From the NCBI GenBank assembly GCA_963822945.1, contig CAWGJO010000004.1, forward strand, positions 105,821 through 169,820: DNA of 64,000 bases, read 5' to 3'. Numbering within the stretch: position 1 is the first letter of the stretch; each line of letters starts with the position of its first letter. Origin of the DNA: an uncultured Gemmatimonadaceae bacterium (GTDB lineage: Bacteria; Gemmatimonadota; Gemmatimonadetes; Gemmatimonadales; Gemmatimonadaceae). The translations under genes and the position numbers were made by a program. The notes under the pieces are model-generated. The model did no database searches. It saw only the letters and a program-made list of their open reading frames with translations, and was not told the DNA's origin. Shown here piece after piece: positions 46,190 to 54,284 of this stretch.

Positions 46190-46804
46190 TTGAAGATCAC
46201 GCGAAGAAATCGTGTCTGGCCGCTCGCCGTGATGATCGCGGCTGCCTGCGGCGGCCCGGCGCGCGACTCACAAGCTCTCCACGGCGCCAAGCTCCCCCAG
46301 CCGATCGCCCGCCCGGAGTTCACACTCACCGATACGCACGGCCAACCCTTCGATTTCCAGAAGGAGACGCGGGGCCAACTCACCCTGCTGGCGTTCGGCT
46401 ACACGCACTGCCCCGACGTCTGCCCGGTGCAGATGGCCAACATCGCCGCGGCCATGCGGCGACTCCCGAGAACCGACCAGCAGCGCATCCGCGTGGTGTT
46501 CATCACCACCGATCCGCCGCGCGACTCCGCGCAGCGCCTGCGCAGCTGGCTCGACAGCTTCAATCCGGCGTTCATCGGGTTGCGGGGCACCGAGGCCGAG
46601 ATCGTGAAAGCGGAGCACGCCGTCGGCGTCGCCCTGGCCACACGGCAGGCGAGCGCGCCCGGCGACACGAACTACACGGTGGGGCATGCGGCGCAGGTGT
46701 ACGCCTTCACGCCGGACGACAGCGCGCACCGCGCCTATCCCTTCGGCACGCTCCAGCAGGATTGGGCGCACGATCTTCCCGAACTGCTTCGCGGCGCTCG
46801 CTGA
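46190..46804 (+). CDS. SCO1/SenC family copper chaperone lipoprotein
   Basis: TTG start after a purine-rich RBS; AAAC lipobox; FGYTHCPDVCP (CxxxC), TTDPPRD, YTVGHAAQVY (His ligand). Confidence 0.9.
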   Translation: MKITRRNRVWPLAVMIAAACGGPARDSQALHGAKLPQPIARPEFTLTDTHGQPFDFQKETRGQLTLLAFGYTHCPDVCPVQMANIAAAMRRLPRTDQQRIRVVFITTDPPRDSAQRLRSWLDSFNPAFIGLRGTEAEIVKAEHAVGVALATRQASAPGDTNYTVGHAAQVYAFTPDDSAHRAYPFGTLQQDWAHDLPELLRGAR

Positions 46805-46831
46805 CCACCCGATTCCGGCGACAATCGATCC

Positions 46832-47644
46832 ATGGTGACCCAACCCGTACAGTGGTGGTGCTCGGCGCAGGGCGTGGCCTGGACGTGGAAATGGCGCCCC
46901 TATCCCGGCATCTGGCTCATGGCGCTCGGCATCGCCGGCGCGTACTGGGCAGCCGTCCGGGGCGGACCCGACACTCCCGCGGCGCGCCGCCGCCGGCTCA
47001 TCGGATGGATCGGCGTGGTCCTGGCGTGGGCCTCGCTCGACTGGCCGTTGGGGCCGCTCGCCGCCGGCTATCTGGCCAGCGCGCACGCCGTGCAGTTTCT
47101 CTCGCTCACCATGGTCGTCGCCCCGCTGATTCTGGTGGGCCTCGAGCCCGGGTTGGCATCGCGTCCGGCGCCCACCGGTGCCGCGTGGCGCGTGCTTCGC
47201 CTCGCCACCATGCCGCTGATGGCGGCGATCATCTTCAACGTGATCGCGGCCGCCACCCACGTGCCTGCGGTCGTCGACGGGCTCATGGTGTCGCAGTTCG
47301 GCTCGTTCGTGCTCGATCTGTCGTGGCTGGTGGCGGGGTTCGTGCTCTGGTGGCCGGTGGTGATGAGCGTGCCAGCGCGCGAGTTTCCCGTGCTCTTCAA
47401 GATCCTGTATCTGTTCCTGGCCACGCTGGTGCATTCGGGAATCGCGACGGTGATGCTGTTCGCCGAGTTCCCGATCTACAGTATCTATCAACTCGCGCCG
47501 CCCATGAACGGGCTCACGTCGCTGGACGATCTGCGCGTCGCCGGCGGGATCATGGAGATCGGCGGCCTGCTCATCACCTTCGGCGTGATGACCGGGCTGT
47601 TCTTTACCTGGGCCAACCGCACCACGACCCCCGACGGCAGTTAG
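46832..47644 (+). CDS. Cytochrome c oxidase assembly factor (Caa3_CtaG-like) membrane protein
   Basis: WASLDWPL, YLASAHAVQ, APLILVG, THVPA, LWWPV, LDDLRVAGGIM; multiple TM helices. Confidence 0.75.
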   Translation: MVTQPVQWWCSAQGVAWTWKWRPYPGIWLMALGIAGAYWAAVRGGPDTPAARRRRLIGWIGVVLAWASLDWPLGPLAAGYLASAHAVQFLSLTMVVAPLILVGLEPGLASRPAPTGAAWRVLRLATMPLMAAIIFNVIAAATHVPAVVDGLMVSQFGSFVLDLSWLVAGFVLWWPVVMSVPAREFPVLFKILYLFLATLVHSGIATVMLFAEFPIYSIYQLAPPMNGLTSLDDLRVAGGIMEIGGLLITFGVMTGLFFTWANRTTTPDGS

Positions 47645-47804
47645 GGCGCGCCGCGCCCGCTTACCGCGCCCCCTCCGGCGGGGAGAAAGTCCGACACGCC
47701 GTCCGGGACGGCCCGATGGGCGGTCGCGCGCGATGGCCGTATCCGTCCCTTAGTAGGGTCTCCCAAGCGAGATCTTCGTCTGCCCCCCAAGCACGGAGAT
47801 TCGG

Positions 47805-49061
47805 ATGCTTAACGTTTCGCGTATCGCCGGACTCGCCGCCGTCGCCATGCTCGCGATGCCGGAGTTGGCGACGGCCAAGAACATTCCCGCGTTCGCGCGG
47901 AAGTACGGCGTGAGTTGTTCCCTCTGCCATGCTCCGGTGCCGCGTCTCACGGCGTTCGGCGAGAAGTTCGCCGCCAACGGGTTCGAGATGCTTCCCGGGG
48001 AGCCGCCGCGGGATACGATCAACACCGGCGACCCTCTCCTGCGTCTGCAGAACACGCTTCCGCTGGCCATCCGCATGGACATGTATGCGGCGGCATATTC
48101 GCACACCAGGCCGGGGCAGAGTGCCGCGGATCTCCAGACGCCCTGGGTGATCAAGCTCCTCAGTGGTGGGCAGGTGGCGGACAAGATCAGCTACTACGCG
48201 TACTTCCTGCTCACCGAGCGCGGTGAGGTGGCGGGACTCGAGGACGCGTACGTCCAGTTCACCGACGTGGCCAATACGGGCGTGAGTGTCATCGTCGGCC
48301 AGTTCCAGGTGTCCGACCCGATCTTCAAGCGCGAACTCCGGTTGAGCTACGAGGATTACCAGCAATTCCGCGTGCGCGTGGGCGAGGCGTCGCCCGACCT
48401 GACCTACGATCGCGGGGTCATGGCCATGATGTCGCCCTGGGAAGGTGGAGACGTATCGGTGCAGTTGATCAATGGGCACGGGCTCAATACCGCCGACGTC
48501 AATCGCCAGTTCGACCGCAACACGCCGAAGAACGTGGTGCTGCGCCTCTCGCAGAAGTGGGGGCCGGTGCGCGTGGGCGGTCTCGGCTATCACGGCGACG
48601 AGCGCTCGAGCGGTTACACGAACACGATCGCCGTGTACGGCCCGGACGCCACCGTCGAGCTGGGCTCGATCGGCACGCTCAACGCGCAGTTCCTGCGCCG
48701 GCTCGACAGCGACCCGTTCTACGGGTCCTGCTCGTCGGCGGTGCCGTGCCCGGGCGACGTGACGACGCCGTACAGCACGACGGTGGACGCGGCATTCGCC
48801 GAGGCCACGTTCTGGCCGAACGGTCCCACCAGCCGGCTGTACTTCACGTCGAGCTACAACTGGGTGTATTCCAGCCGCCCCGTGATCTCGCTGCGCCTGG
48901 GCGAGCAGGCCTCGGCGCCCGGCTACATGTCCAAGTACAACGCGGTGAGCGGCGGCGCGCACTACTGGTTCCGGCGGAACGTGCGGCTGATGGGGGAACT
49001 GGGTTACGACTTCCAGCGCGAGCAGGGGCGACTCATCGCCGGCACCGTACTCGCGTTCTGA
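47805..49061 (+). CDS. cyc2: Cyc2-like fused monoheme cytochrome c / outer-membrane beta-barrel
   Basis: Signal peptide, then IPAFARKY-GVS-CSLCH-APV-PRLTAFGEKFAANGF, followed by ~330 aa of amphipathic beta-strands ending in Phe. Confidence 0.75.
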   Translation: MLNVSRIAGLAAVAMLAMPELATAKNIPAFARKYGVSCSLCHAPVPRLTAFGEKFAANGFEMLPGEPPRDTINTGDPLLRLQNTLPLAIRMDMYAAAYSHTRPGQSAADLQTPWVIKLLSGGQVADKISYYAYFLLTERGEVAGLEDAYVQFTDVANTGVSVIVGQFQVSDPIFKRELRLSYEDYQQFRVRVGEASPDLTYDRGVMAMMSPWEGGDVSVQLINGHGLNTADVNRQFDRNTPKNVVLRLSQKWGPVRVGGLGYHGDERSSGYTNTIAVYGPDATVELGSIGTLNAQFLRRLDSDPFYGSCSSAVPCPGDVTTPYSTTVDAAFAEATFWPNGPTSRLYFTSSYNWVYSSRPVISLRLGEQASAPGYMSKYNAVSGGAHYWFRRNVRLMGELGYDFQREQGRLIAGTVLAF

Positions 49062-49076
49062 CGGAGGAGGTGTGAG

Positions 49077-49502
49077 ATGAAACGCTGGACGTTCGCGTTC
49101 GCGGCGCTGCTGGCCGTGCTGGTGCTCGGGGCAACGGACCTCCGGAACGCCCATCCCGCGGCGGCGGTACCTGCCGCCGCCGCGGGGGACACGGCGTTGT
49201 CTCCGGCCATGATTGCGCTGGGCGACAGCATCTTCCACGGGCGCGTCGGCGGTGGCATCTGCTTCACCTGTCATGGACCGACCGGAAAGGGCATGCCGGG
49301 GTTGGCCCCCGATCTGACCGACGCGACGTGGCTGCACGGCGACGGGAGTTACGACTTCATCGTGAAGCTCGTGACCACCGGCGTGCCCAAGCCCAAGGGC
49401 GTGGTGGCGGCTCCGATGCTGCCGAAGGGCGGGGCGAAGCTGACGCCGCATCAGGTGCAGGCCGTGGCGGCCTACGTCTACTCGCTGCGGAACGCGAAGT
49501 AG
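49077..49502 (+). CDS. Periplasmic monoheme c-type cytochrome
   Basis: GGAGGAGG RBS; signal peptide; CFTCHG, LAPDLTD..WLHG, distal Met in PMLPKGG. Confidence 0.92.
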   Translation: MKRWTFAFAALLAVLVLGATDLRNAHPAAAVPAAAAGDTALSPAMIALGDSIFHGRVGGGICFTCHGPTGKGMPGLAPDLTDATWLHGDGSYDFIVKLVTTGVPKPKGVVAAPMLPKGGAKLTPHQVQAVAAYVYSLRNAK

Positions 49503-49863
49503 GCACACTGCCGTGAGCGAATCGCGCCGGCGCCACGATCGAGCGTGGCGCCGGCCTTCCGTGCGACCACGGGGAATGCCTGACACGACGTACGGCGAGT
49601 CCCGATGGGCCCGCGCGTGCGCCACGCATATCCGTCATCCAATGCGTTCGGGAGGTCGCCAATGGCGACGGGCGACCTGCGGGCGCGGCGTTCCCACTCT
49701 GCCGCGCACGCCTTCTCCGCGTTCGTGTATTCACTGAGCGACTCCGTTCGGTAGCCGCGCCGCATCGGGCGCCGGAGCGCGGGGGCGGCGTTGCCAGTCG
49801 CCGGTCGCGCGTCGATATTGCGATGACGTCGTTCGCGGCACGCACTTGGGGCCGGAGGGTCTC

Positions 49864-51201
49864 GTGGATCCTGTATTCTGGCATCGATTCCAATTCGCCT
49901 TCACGGCGACGTTTCACTATCTGTTCCCGCAGCTGACGATGGGGCTGGCGCTGCTCATCCTCGTGATGAAGTCGCTCGGCCTCCGTCCGGGCGGAGAGCG
50001 CTGGAACACGGCGGCGCGCTTCTGGATCCGCATCTTCGGGATCAACTTCGCCGTCGGCGTGGTGACGGGCATCCCGATGGAGTTCCAGTTCGGAACGAAC
50101 TGGGCCGGCTTCTCCGCCTACGCCGGCAGTGTCATCGGCAATACGCTCGGCATGGAAGGGCTGTTCGCGTTCTTCCTGGAGTCGAGCTTCCTGGCGCTCC
50201 TCGTCTGGGGCGAGGGCCGGGTCGGTCGCATCGGTCACTGGCTCGCCTCGCTGGCGCTGTTCGTCGGCAGTTGGCTGTCGGGTTATTTCATCGTCGCCAC
50301 CAACGCGTTCATGCAGCATCCCGTGGGGGCCCAGCTCGCGGCCAACGGGACCCTGCAGATCGACGGCTTCTGGCGCTTCGTGCTGAATCCCTGGGCCGTG
50401 CTCCAGTACCTGCATACGATGGACGCCAGCGTGGTCACCGCCGCGTTCGTCGTCGCCGCCGTCGGGGCGTACTACATGCTCCGCGGTATCCACACCGAGT
50501 CGGCCCGCGACTTCCTGAAGATCGGCGTGATCGCGGGGCTGGTGGCGAGCGTGATCGTCGCCTTTCCCACCGGCGACCGGGAGGCGAAGGCGGTGGCCCG
50601 GTGGCAACCGGTCTCGCTGGCCGCCATGGAGGGCCGGTTCGAGAGCGGTCCCTACGCCGCGATCACGCTCATCGGCCAGCCCGACGTGCAGGAACGCCGG
50701 CTGGACAACCCGATCCAGGTGGGCGGCATCCTGAGCGTGCTGGCGTTCGGAGCCTGGCACAGCAATGTGCCGGGCCTCAGCGCCTTCCCCACCGATCAGT
50801 GGCCCACCAACATCGAGCTGCTGTACTACGCGTTCCACATCATGGTCGGGCTCGGCACGCTGTTCATTCTGCTCATGGCCGCGTCGACCCTGCGCCTCGC
50901 ACGGGGGAAGCTGCACGACACGCGATGGCTGCTGTGGATGCTGATGCTCGCCTTTCCCTTTCCCTACATCGCCAACACGGCCGGCTGGCTGACCGCCGAA
51001 CTGGGGCGGCAGCCGTGGCTGGTATTCGGGATGCTGCGCACCGACGCCGGCGCGAGTCCGATGGTGCATTCGGGTACGGTGCTGTTCACCACCATCGGCT
51101 TCGCGGGGCTGTATCTCGTGCTCGGCCTGCTCTTCTTCTTCCTGATCGCGCGCGAGATCGCGCACGGGCCGCAGCCGGCGGCGGAGGCGTCCCATGTTTG
51201 A
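49864..51201 (+). CDS. cydA: Cytochrome bd ubiquinol oxidase subunit I
   Basis: RFQFAFTATFHYLF, GIPMEFQFGTNW, FFLES, NAFMQHP, FHIMVGLG, GWLTAELGRQPW; short Q-loop. Confidence 0.96.
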   Translation: MDPVFWHRFQFAFTATFHYLFPQLTMGLALLILVMKSLGLRPGGERWNTAARFWIRIFGINFAVGVVTGIPMEFQFGTNWAGFSAYAGSVIGNTLGMEGLFAFFLESSFLALLVWGEGRVGRIGHWLASLALFVGSWLSGYFIVATNAFMQHPVGAQLAANGTLQIDGFWRFVLNPWAVLQYLHTMDASVVTAAFVVAAVGAYYMLRGIHTESARDFLKIGVIAGLVASVIVAFPTGDREAKAVARWQPVSLAAMEGRFESGPYAAITLIGQPDVQERRLDNPIQVGGILSVLAFGAWHSNVPGLSAFPTDQWPTNIELLYYAFHIMVGLGTLFILLMAASTLRLARGKLHDTRWLLWMLMLAFPFPYIANTAGWLTAELGRQPWLVFGMLRTDAGASPMVHSGTVLFTTIGFAGLYLVLGLLFFFLIAREIAHGPQPAAEASHV

Positions 51202-52240
51202 AGTCTGGTTTGCGATCGTCGCCGTGATGTTCACCGGCTACGTGGTGCTCGACGGCTACGACCTCGGTGCCGGCGCGCTGCATCTGTTCGTGGCCCGCAC
51301 CGGCGACGAGCGGCGGCAGGTGCTGGCCGCCGTGGGCCCGTTCTGGGACGCCAACGAGGTGTGGTTGCTGGCGGCGGGCGGTGCGCTCTTCGTGGGGTTC
51401 CCGCGCGTGCTCGCCGTGGGGCTCTCGGGCTTCTATCTGGCCATCTTCCTCGTCATCTGGATGCTGATCCTGCGCGCGGTGGCCATCGAGTTCCGGAGCC
51501 ACGTGACCGACGCGCTCTGGCGTGCCTTCTGGGACGCGATGTTCACGATCGCGAGCGCGCTGCTGGCGATTCTCTGGGGCGCCGCCATCGGCAATGTGAT
51601 CCGCGGATTGCCGCTCGGCGCCAACGGGTGGTTCGCGCTTCCGCTGTTCACCGATTTCAGCGCCAGGGCGCCGGTGGGCATTCTGGACTGGTACACGGTG
51701 CTCACCGGCGTCTTCGCGCTCGTGGCGCTGGTGGGCCACGGCAGCCTGTTCCTGGCCTGGCGTACCGACGGCCCCGTGTACGACCGGGCGCGACGGGTGG
51801 GGTTCCGCGTGTTCGTGCTCCTCGCCGTGCTGTGGCCGGTCGTCACGCTGGCCACGAACGTCGTGAATCCGACGCTGCTGCCGGCGCTTCCGGGGCGTCC
51901 GCTGGCCTGGCTCGGACTGCTGGTGGCGATCGGCGGCCTCGTGGCGGTATTCGTGGGGCTGGCCCGCGCGCGGCTGCTCACCGCGTTTCTCGGGTCGTCT
52001 GCCTGGCTCACGGGCATGCTCGTGGCCACCGCGGCGTGTCTCTATCCGGTGATGCTGCGCGCGGTCCCCGACGCCGCGTATTCGATCACCGCGAGCGAGT
52101 CCGGCAACTCGGCGGCGGGGTTGCATACCGCGCTGGGCTGGTGGGTGGTGGGCTTCCCCATCGCCATCGTGTACTTCGCGATCCTCTTCCGCCTCCACCG
52201 GGGCAAGGCGGTGGCGGCGGAAGAGGGGAAGGGCTACTGA
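51194..52240 (+). CDS. cydB: Cytochrome bd oxidase subunit II
   Basis: YVVLDGYDLG, GPFWDANEVWL, LRAVAIEFR; overlaps the cydA stop. Confidence 0.96.
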   Translation: MFEVWFAIVAVMFTGYVVLDGYDLGAGALHLFVARTGDERRQVLAAVGPFWDANEVWLLAAGGALFVGFPRVLAVGLSGFYLAIFLVIWMLILRAVAIEFRSHVTDALWRAFWDAMFTIASALLAILWGAAIGNVIRGLPLGANGWFALPLFTDFSARAPVGILDWYTVLTGVFALVALVGHGSLFLAWRTDGPVYDRARRVGFRVFVLLAVLWPVVTLATNVVNPTLLPALPGRPLAWLGLLVAIGGLVAVFVGLARARLLTAFLGSSAWLTGMLVATAACLYPVMLRAVPDAAYSITASESGNSAAGLHTALGWWVVGFPIAIVYFAILFRLHRGKAVAAEEGKGY

Positions 52241-52265: not shown

Positions 52266-54284
52266 TCACCATGCGATTCCGTAGTCCTCGCCGTGGTTGC
52301 TCGACGCGCCCCACATGGTGTGGTTCGTGGTGTCGAACATGATCGCGTTGATCGGGCCCGACGTGCGTCCGGCGAACCGGAGCGTGTAGCCCAGGAGTTC
52401 CAGCGCGCGCCGCGTGGAGTCCGGCAGGGAGGTGGCCACCAGCATCCGTCCGGGCTCGTTCTCGTGCAACCCGAACGACGACCGCATCTGGTAGCTGTTG
52501 AAGTTCGGCGCCTCGGCGGCCTCCTGCGGCGTCATGCCGAACTCGACCACGTTCAGGAAGAACTGCAGCAGGTTCTGATCCTGCGAGTCGCCGCCCTGCA
52601 CGGCGAAGGCCAGGAAGGGCTTCCCGTCTTTCAGGGCGAGAGTCGGCGTGAGTGTCACGCGCGGGCGTTGGCCCGGCTGGATCACATTGTAGGGGCCGTC
52701 ACTCGCGTACGTCACGAAGCTCTGCGCCCGCTCGCTGAGCCCGATGCCGCTGTGGCCCGCGATCACCGCCGGCACCCAGCCGCCGCTCGGCGTCACCGAC
52801 ACGACCCATCCCGCCGAGTCGGCGGAGACGATGGAGGTCGTGCCGTCGTAGAAGGCGGTGGTGAACGACGAGTCGGCACGGCTCGCGTGGTTGGGCAGGA
52901 ACTCCAGCGGTCCCGACATGCGGCCCACGACGTTCGTGTCGCGCTTCACGGGGCGCACCAGGTCCTGCTCGCCGCCGACCGGACCCTGCTTGCCCGGCTC
53001 GAAGTTCAGCGGATTCCACTGCGCGAGCAGCGACGTGAACGGATTCGTGCCGCCCTGGAACGGATACGGGTTTCCCGGCTTCACCGTCGAGTCGTTGTGC
53101 GTCCAGTCGATCTCGTTGAATCGATGGCGGGCGTAGGCCTTGGACAGCAGTCCCTTCACGGGCTCGGCGGGCGGAAAGTACGGATCGCCGTAATAGAAGT
53201 CGCGGTCGGCATACGCCAGGTTCATCACCTGGTAGAGCGTGTGGATGTACTGCGGGGAGTTGTAGCCCATCGCCTTCACGTTGGTGTCGGCGAGCATGTT
53301 CAACATCTGCAGCATCACCGGGCCCTGCTGCCAGATCGGGAGCTTGTAGACCTCGATGCCCTTGTAGTCGGTGCTCAGCGGCTGCTCGATGTGCACCTTC
53401 CAGTTGGCGAGGTCGGCCATCGTGAACAGGCCGCCCTCCTCGCGCATGCCGCGGACGATCTCGCGGGCGATGTCGCCCTTGTAGAACCGGTCGTAGGCGG
53501 CATAGATCGCCTGCTTGCGGGTCTTGCCGGCCTTGAGCGCCCGCTGCTCGGCGTCCACCAGCTTGCGCCAGGTGGCGGCGAGGTCGGGTTGGCGGAAGAT
53601 CTCGCCGGCATAGGGGCCCGGGTGATCGGTGCCGGGGTGCGTGAACATCACCTCGCGCGAGTACTTCCACTGCGCGAGCGTGTCCTTGTAGAACTGGATC
53701 GTGTTGCAGATCTGTGCTTCGATGGCGTACCCGTCGGCCATCTGAATGGCGGGCGCCAGAATCTGCTTCAGCGACAGCGTGCCGTATTCGGCCTCCATCG
53801 TGAGCAGCCCGCCCACCGTGCCCGGAGTGACGGCGGCCAGCGGACCGTACTGCGGCGGGAAGCGATATCCCTTGCGGTGGTAATACGCGGCGGTCGCCCC
53901 GGTGGGCGCCACGCCCAGCGCGTCGATGCCGATCACCTTGTGCGTGTGGGGATTGTAGATGAGGGCCTGGGTTTCGCCGCCACACGAGAGTGTGTCCCAC
54001 ATCGTGCAGCCGGCGGCGAGCATCGCCGCCGCGGCATCGACGGCGTTGCCGCCCTCGGCGAAGATCAGCGCGCCGGCCGTGGCCGAGAGCGGCTTTCCGG
54101 TGATGGCGAGCCAGTGCTTGGCCATCAGCGGGGGCTTTTCCGTCTGGGAGTTGCGCGGATCCTCGGCCTGGCGCGGCTGCGCGGTCCGGGGGCGGCCGCG
54201 CCGCTGCGCCTGCAGCGCCATCGGGGTCAGGGCCAGCAGCGCCGCCACGGCGAGGCGGCGCGCGGGAATACGGTATCTGGTCAT
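52266..54284 (-). CDS. ggt: Secreted gamma-glutamyltransferase (T3 Ntn-hydrolase) family protein
   Basis: Signal peptide; GGNAVDAAAA, AVTPGTVGG, FYKGDIA, AYADRDFYYGDP, nucleophile G|TTS, PGQRPRVTLTP, QGGDSQDQ. Confidence 0.9.
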   Translation of the reverse strand: MTRYRIPARRLAVAALLALTPMALQAQRRGRPRTAQPRQAEDPRNSQTEKPPLMAKHWLAITGKPLSATAGALIFAEGGNAVDAAAAMLAAGCTMWDTLSCGGETQALIYNPHTHKVIGIDALGVAPTGATAAYYHRKGYRFPPQYGPLAAVTPGTVGGLLTMEAEYGTLSLKQILAPAIQMADGYAIEAQICNTIQFYKDTLAQWKYSREVMFTHPGTDHPGPYAGEIFRQPDLAATWRKLVDAEQRALKAGKTRKQAIYAAYDRFYKGDIAREIVRGMREEGGLFTMADLANWKVHIEQPLSTDYKGIEVYKLPIWQQGPVMLQMLNMLADTNVKAMGYNSPQYIHTLYQVMNLAYADRDFYYGDPYFPPAEPVKGLLSKAYARHRFNEIDWTHNDSTVKPGNPYPFQGGTNPFTSLLAQWNPLNFEPGKQGPVGGEQDLVRPVKRDTNVVGRMSGPLEFLPNHASRADSSFTTAFYDGTTSIVSADSAGWVVSVTPSGGWVPAVIAGHSGIGLSERAQSFVTYASDGPYNVIQPGQRPRVTLTPTLALKDGKPFLAFAVQGGDSQDQNLLQFFLNVVEFGMTPQEAAEAPNFNSYQMRSSFGLHENEPGRMLVATSLPDSTRRALELLGYTLRFAGRTSGPINAIMFDTTNHTMWGASSNHGEDYGIAW

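Follow-up and report, generated by a model that had tools for sequence, protein, structure and literature searches.

Introduction

The rus operon of Acidithiobacillus ferrooxidans is composed of cyc2-cyc1-coxBACD-rus. Cyc2 proteins, as defined in the available text of 10.1101/228056, share the motif PXFAR[Q/K][T/Y] with a single CxxCH downstream and a PXL four residues further on, are at least 365 amino acids (aa) long and contain a 16-stranded, OprO/OprP-like porin, for which OprP is the named structural template. The three Cyc2 proteins described there as characterized, one per cluster of the family, all oxidize Fe(II), and the heme of one of them, Cyc2 PV-1, has a potential of about +208 mV (10.1101/228056). 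Cyc2 homologues have also been reported in metagenome-assembled genomes (MAGs) of Gemmatimonadota that are putative heterotrophs (PMC9769843; PMC11316326), and the presence of Cyc2 in this phylum is already known. Here we analyze a 64,000-nt stretch (the window) of contig CAWGJO010000004.1 in assembly GCA_963822945.1, from an uncultured Gemmatimonadaceae bacterium, which contains the six-gene row sco-ctaG-cyc2-cytC-cydA-cydB.

This row was pieced together recently in a variable slot and does not represent a conserved iron-oxidation chain; the unit that recurs is a two-gene cassette of cyc2 and a monoheme cytochrome c gene. An earlier note on this DNA had taken the six genes for one module and had named a gene order that is not conserved as grounds for refutation. 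The order is indeed not conserved: sco-ctaG persists in nine genomes of the genus without cyc2, and adjacency of cydAB and cyc2 is rare, being found in one of the six other genus genomes that carry cyc2 and in 0/39 distant loci. No oxidase genes were found to stay next to cyc2 from one lineage to another, as they would in a rus-like arrangement. The gene order, the history of the slot and a duplicated element within it are undescribed in the papers searched.

Gene content and history of the slot

Open reading frame (ORF) calling and a Pfam/NCBIfam profile search were used to name the genes in the window. The six genes lie on the + strand where the earlier note had placed them, as judged by ORF calls and, for five of them, Pfam matches. 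The features of the locus are:

46232..46804 (start could be 46190), + strand: sco, SCO1/SenC copper chaperone (PF02630, E 1.7e-32)
46832..47644, + strand: ctaG, caa3 oxidase assembly factor (PF09678, Caa3_CtaG, E 4e-31)
47690..47748, + strand: upstream element, copy 1, which precedes cyc2 in 7/7 close training loci
47805..49061, + strand: cyc2, Cyc2-family fused monoheme cytochrome-porin of 418 aa (by motif, 16-strand model and OprP match)
49077..49502, + strand: cytC, periplasmic monoheme cytochrome c of 141 aa (PF00034, Cytochrom_C; PF13442)
49579..49637, + strand: upstream element, copy 2 (score 37.1, outside the training set)
49710..49755, + strand: the 3' end, now decayed, of another cytochrome c gene; it matches the intact gene in the slot of the sister genome G269
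49791..49819, + strand: sigma-70-like site, TTGCCA-17-GATATT, kept before cydA in G269, G314 and G315
49864..51201, + strand: cydA, cytochrome bd subunit I, quinol-type (qOR1-like) by sequence (PF01654, Cyt_bd_oxida_I)
51194..52240, + strand: cydB (PF02322, Cyt_bd_oxida_II; TIGR00203 above its cut-off)
52266..54284, - strand: ggt, gamma-glutamyltranspeptidase, right border of the variable slot (PF01019)

The gaps between successive genes from sco to cydB are 27, 160, 15, 361 and -8 bp. The 361-bp gap before cydA, which the earlier note had passed over, holds the second copy of the element, the decayed cytochrome c gene and the promoter-like site. Genes flanking the locus are peptidase-like and BNR-repeat hydrolase-like, and both the names borne by close homologues and related records back a Gemmatimonadota origin.

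The genome to which the window belongs (G000; 3.97 Mb, 88% complete) was compared with 16 other genomes of the genus (completeness 77-99%). The backbone common to the genus is sco-ctaG-[slot]-ggt, with variable cargo in the slot. While sco-ctaG is found in 15 of the 16 genomes, full-length cyc2 is found in six, always in the slot and always with cytC. The gene cydA is also present in 15/16, but G316, with 95% identity to G000 over the block, is the only one to have it in the slot. G016 and G051 have nothing in the slot, and G314, G315, G207, G308 and G076 have unrelated cargo there. A tree of sco, ctaG and ggt places G269 as sister to G000 and G316 with an ultrafast bootstrap (UFBoot) support of 100, its deeper nodes being weak; in G269 the slot contains a cytochrome c gene alone, and a cydA with 94% identity is located on another contig. 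The simplest reading is that cydAB entered the slot after the split from G269. Its arrival in the slot is likely recent.

The cyc2-cytC cassette across Gemmatimonadota

An orthologue of the window Cyc2 at E<1e-49 was found in 41 of 300 sampled Gemmatimonadota genomes, a tally that, like that for cydA below, includes the unpublished genome G157 as one row. Synteny was compared for 39 of the 41 orthologue loci, each 2-18 kb long, the partial matches G027 and G099 being left out. A cytochrome c of the cytC family follows cyc2 within 900 bp in 17/39 of these loci (16/36 of those long enough and 1/3 of the short ones) and in 18/21 related loci, the latter count including L072-L077 and some near-duplicates; since L072-L077 duplicate the genomes G316, G311, G310, G306, G307 and G312, they were given no weight as independent support. 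The periplasmic monoheme partner that the earlier note had recognized behind cyc2 is thus a recurring one. It carries the heme-binding motif CFTCH and a likely distal Met in the string PML. Matches to cydA, cydB or ctaG were absent from all 39 distant loci and sco gave one weak match. By hand count, a strong cydA match is found in 13/41 genomes with a cyc2 orthologue and in 104/300 overall, so that cydA is not enriched in genomes with cyc2.

Several distant loci have neighborhoods of their own. At L045 and L055, cyc2 has on one side genes for a heme-copper oxidase of two subunits, which looks ba3-like, and on the other a clade II nosZ cluster; a route from Cyc2 to N2O is possible there, while at L044 and L062 it stands beside a heme-copper oxidase only. 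In the most distant orthologues (L061 and L065-L068), a multiheme cytochrome gene upstream takes the place of the monoheme partner, and in some of them cyc2 is followed by a barrel-like gene, multiheme cytochrome genes and a Rieske-cytochrome b pair. At L035, L040, L047, L052, L054, L056, L057, L062, L069 and others, cyc2 lies among genes for USP, CBS, Hsp20, YgaP-like and GAF histidine kinase proteins, neighborhoods resembling a low-oxygen stress island for which there is no background rate.

The Cyc2-family protein

The 418-aa protein reads PAFARKY-GVS-CSLCH-APV-PRL, with PAFARKY at residues 28-34, CSLCH at 38-42 and PRL at 46-48, and thus displays the Cyc2 motif, except that Asn replaces the Ala that opens AXPX; a Cyc2-type motif is found in 59/60 loci compared. 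CSLCH is encoded at 47916-47930 and the protein ends in Phe (Phe418), both as the earlier note had reported. A signal peptide can be read from the sequence and from the N-terminal helix of the model. This AlphaFold2 model, built from 54 sequences with a mean predicted local distance difference test (pLDDT) score of 85.9, contains 16 long strands after residue 87, in keeping with the strand number and minimum length of Cyc2. Its top match by VIA-align is OprP (2o4v; Z 24.8, root-mean-square deviation 3.4, 304 residues aligned), with Omp32 less than 1 behind (Z 23.9), and its best Foldseek matches are porins. Pfam and NCBIfam gave zero matches for the protein and a sequence search for a solved structural relative found none. 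In the ESM Atlas, its matches fall into unnamed clusters, in one of which 20% of the members have Porin_O_P. By motif and predicted fold, the protein is a member of the Cyc2 family, and the architecture proposed in the earlier note is borne out by the motif, the modeled 16-strand barrel and the OprP match. Among 7,999 candidates, 2,628 homologues were found, and those with names are mostly from Gemmatimonadaceae.

On indirect grounds, the window Cyc2 probably belongs to cluster 3: it has the string FARKY in common with the N-terminus of Leptospirillum Cyt572 (PMC13741234), and the cluster I and II homologues listed in PMC9769843 are assigned to other phyla. The supplement text of 10.1101/228056 holds no match to the motif or to Gemmatimonadota, its possibly relevant figures and figshare files lying outside the search, and the names of the cluster members of 10 distant homologues were uninformative for cluster assignment.

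A second, distant Cyc2-like paralogue of 486 aa (G000:C21:75569-77319; L071) has a PAFSRQT-type motif and a small cytochrome c gene of the same family just before it. Similar weak matches are found in 11/16 other genus genomes, more often than the orthologue of the window protein (6/16).

The cytochrome bd oxidase

Cytochrome bd is free of copper and needs neither SCO nor CtaG, which serve copper oxidases. The window CydA, with the motif strings MEGLFAFFLES and QPVSLAAMEG, is closest in alignment to bd-II and bd-I of E. coli, retains the heme ligands (His, Met), Glu257 and GRQPW, and has a short Q-loop and seven residues between the channel glutamates Glu99 and Glu107. No CxxCH was found in CydA or in 120 homologues. 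In terms of the classes of Murali et al. (10.1101/2021.01.16.426971), where OR-C enzymes bear heme c in subunit I and have lost the quinol site, CydA is by sequence a qOR1-like quinol oxidase and not an OR-C enzyme, because CxxCH is missing, Glu257 and the heme ligands are kept and the glutamates are seven residues apart. The doubt voiced in the earlier note, that bd normally draws its electrons from quinol and not from cytochrome c, was well placed: the enzyme is by sequence quinol-type and without heme c.

At one position CydA departs from qOR1. Lys252, which stabilizes the Q-loop in E. coli (PMC13189123), is Ser in the window CydA and Ser, Ala, Gly or Thr in 120/120 close homologues, and the same Lys252-less motif is found in genus genomes without cyc2. 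The loss is clade-wide and was rejected on that ground as an adaptation to Cyc2.

In 41 genomes of other Gemmatimonadota (e.g., G058, G258 and G041), weak CydA matches cover only the first 230 residues, in frames of 570-990 aa. These partial matches are likely OR-N or OR-C bd-like oxidases, and none of this type was found in G000.

The duplicated upstream element

The element before cyc2 is about 60 bp long and reads CCGACA..TCCGG..CCCGATGGG, followed by CGTAT at a fixed 26-nt offset. It resembles a promoter or regulator site, which is its putative function, and has no Rfam match. Copy 2, which was kept out of training, has a score of 37.1, whereas the runner-up in the 3.97-Mb genome reaches 23.4; copy 2 differs from copy 1 in the downstream block, where CGTATCC is changed to CATATCC. 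The exact pattern occurs twice each in G000 and G316, once before cyc2 in each of G306, G307, G310 and G312, once before the cytochrome gene of G269 and at two unrelated sites besides, and the reversed control gave 0. Outside the close clade, no element scoring at least 20 was found before cyc2 in 1.31 Mb of loci, and with only two copies in G000 it does not mark a wider regulon there.

Behind copy 2, the remnant of a cytochrome c gene reads FSAFVYSLSDSVR*. Its local score against the G269 gene is 44 (shuffle maximum 29) and that against cytC of the window is 21, and a longer remnant in G316 scores 68 vs. 34. Two histories fit: duplication of the element and the cytochrome gene with loss of cyc2-cytC from G269, or a renewed gain of cyc2-cytC ahead of a G269-like slot. 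The sigma-70-like site nearer to cydA (1 found vs. 0.5 expected) is weak alone, but it is kept before cydA of G269, G314 and G315 at unrelated loci, which suggests that cydAB moved with its own promoter region. Under either history, co-regulation of cydAB with cyc2 is possible in the window species, because cydA now sits 285 bp downstream of an element of the cyc2 type. Of all results, this one, drawn from two near-identical genomes, favors the earlier note most. In the 361-bp spacer, no terminator-like site was called. FNR, CRP, Fur and Rex consensus boxes were found before 6, 2, 1 and 0 of 59 cyc2 genes vs. 34, 26, 6 and 0 of 610 and are not clearly enriched.

Other electron-transfer genes of the genome

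A caa3 operon, encoding COX2 with CuA and heme c, COX1 and COX3, is located on contig C20, with neither sco nor ctaG in the 6 kb examined around it, and COX1 is matched in 17/17 genus genomes. Ccm genes are on C27 and clusters resembling alternative complex III (ACIII) on C9, C17 and C24. No RuBisCO match was found in G000 at its 88% completeness; this and the Gemmatimonadota names of the homologues make the heterotrophic Gemmatimonadota host suggested in the earlier note probable.

Two of the ACIII-like clusters, near-identical and at contig ends (G000:C9:3294-10317 and C17:69756-76901), represent a duplication or an assembly artefact. At G000:C15:28804-33082 there is a Rieske-cytochrome b/c-caa3-type oxidase cluster that includes a ctaG gene; the COX1 of this cluster is in frameshifted pieces, possibly through assembly error. 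Multiheme cytochromes with 7 to 22 CxxCH motifs (G000:C21:324944, C22:75878-84564, C26:12912-19332 and C27:71912-75468) are possible further electron-transfer conduits. Twenty sequencing runs (soil, salt-marsh and sediment metagenomes, four of them RNA) hold at most 0.46 of the sampled words and give no evidence of habitat or expression.

Proposed electron path and alternatives

On balance, we are inclined to propose that an external reductant, probably dissolved Fe(II), would reduce the heme of Cyc2 at the outer membrane, that the periplasmic His/Met-type cytC would carry the electron from Cyc2 to caa3, and that the products of the backbone genes sco-ctaG would assemble the caa3 oxidase encoded on the other contig, while bd, likely a recent arrival, would oxidize quinol in parallel. 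Electron uptake may thus provide supplementary energy to a heterotroph. This proposal builds on the gene identities, the motif, the patchy gene order and the caa3 operon, together with the predicted barrel; we infer the donor, the electron direction, the passage from cytC to caa3, the order in which the insertions occurred and the supplementary role. Fe(II) oxidation by the window protein is putative, dissolved Fe(II) being the most likely donor. Several points weigh against this proposal. Direction, donor and Fe(II) role of the cassette are deduced from sequences and models, and cluster 3 is the cluster whose function is rated most uncertain (10.1101/228056). The search in the 16 other genus genomes found 10 without a cyc2 match, so that cyc2 is dispensable. 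Five more cytochromes of the small cytC family are encoded in the genome, for which reason the partner route may be redundant. Fourteen of the 39 distant loci, counted without a background rate, are near USP, CBS, Hsp20 or heme-copper oxidase genes and two are near clade II nosZ, and sinks other than caa3 are therefore possible there. Finally, copy 2 of the element, 285 bp before cydA, may tie cydAB to cyc2 in the window species.

This last point is the starting point of two other accounts. It is possible but unlikely that, in the window species and its sister, cydAB was captured behind the duplicated element and is co-induced with cyc2-cytC at low oxygen, the two sharing a regulon and no direct wire. 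The genome has just two copies of the element, one before cyc2 and one before cydA, copy 2 still scores 37 where the intervening cytochrome gene has decayed, and no terminator-like site was called in the spacer; but these data come from a single pair of genomes with 95% identity, a promoter-like site came along with cydAB, copy 2 has a change in its downstream block, the function of the element is putative, and FNR-, CRP-, Fur- and Rex-like boxes are not clearly enriched before cyc2. More speculative, and distinctly unlikely, is a regulon in the making, in which the element was duplicated and a high-affinity bd with an atypical quinol site was then placed behind copy 2, so that outer-membrane electron uptake and microaerobic respiration would be switched on jointly, with energy drawn from Fe(II) or humic reductants in a widespread chemolithoheterotrophic life.

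The cassette itself may be something other than an iron oxidase, exchanging electrons with humic quinones, Mn or Fe(III) chelates, or exporting them under oxygen limitation. Cluster 3 includes proteins of Mn oxidizers and Nitrospira whose role is unproven (10.1101/2024.12.25.630300), electron direction is not deducible according to PMC11316326, and distant loci pair Cyc2 with upstream multiheme cytochromes (5/39) or with stress and low-oxygen genes; since all three characterized proteins oxidize Fe(II) (10.1101/228056), we consider this account unlikely. The single conserved chain from Cyc2 through cytC to bd that the earlier note had put forward, for microaerobic Fe(II) oxidation with SCO and CtaG as assembly factors, is very improbable, and a Cyc2-to-bd route is unlikely as the purpose of the locus. 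The genes do share a strand at short distances, both ends of the chain suit low oxygen, ACIII-like clusters and the Rieske-cytochrome b pair could link cytochrome c to quinone, and Lys252 is replaced in CydA. Against this, the gene order is not conserved, SCO and CtaG are superfluous for copper-free bd, and Lys252 is replaced throughout the homologues, also in genus genomes without cyc2. Menaquinone is the quinone of Gemmatimonas. Electron transfer to it from a heme at about +208 mV, the value for Cyc2 PV-1, would be uphill and energy-costly and would run via ACIII.

Whichever account applies, about one in seven sampled Gemmatimonadota genomes (41/300) carries a Cyc2 orthologue, which often comes with a small cytochrome dedicated to it. 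If Fe(II) is oxidized, an abundant heterotrophic phylum joins iron cycling; if it is not, counts based on cyc2 as a marker exaggerate iron oxidation. The cyc2-cytC cassette offers a compact test object for cluster-3-type Cyc2, and the present locus illustrates that a row of genes, however attractive, may have been put together recently from separate pieces in a variable slot.

Comparison with known systems

The bd oxidase of the locus is like the qOR1, short-Q-loop enzymes of 10.1101/2021.01.16.426971 in its CydAB pair, heme ligands, Glu257, GRQPW and glutamate spacing and differs from them in the replacement of Lys252 throughout its clade; it belongs neither to OR-C nor to OR-N. With the Cyc2 reported in Gemmatimonadota MAGs, the window protein shares family, phylum and putatively heterotrophic hosts, while the available text of PMC9769843 and PMC11316326 gives no gene context and describes neither the cytC partner nor the slot with its variable cargo nor the upstream element.

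In the rus operon of A. ferrooxidans and the Cyc2-Cyc1-cbb3 pathway of Zetaproteobacteria (PMC7029218), as in the path proposed here, Cyc2 is followed by a periplasmic cytochrome c and a terminal oxidase serves as the sink. In contrast, the partner in the window is monoheme, a heme-copper oxidase and rusticyanin are absent from the locus, the oxidase next to cyc2-cytC is a bd of the quinol type whose presence there is not conserved, and RuBisCO is unmatched in the genome. Among fused cytochrome-porins, there is a likeness to Cyc2 of A. ferrooxidans, Cyc2 PV-1 of Mariprofundus and Cyt572 of Leptospirillum (10.1101/228056), with which the window protein shares a signal-like N-terminus, the motif with a single CxxCH and PxL, a length above 365 aa and a predicted OprP-like barrel. 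Likened to them by their described motif and fold, it differs in having Asn for Ala two residues before the Pro and in its probably heterotrophic host.

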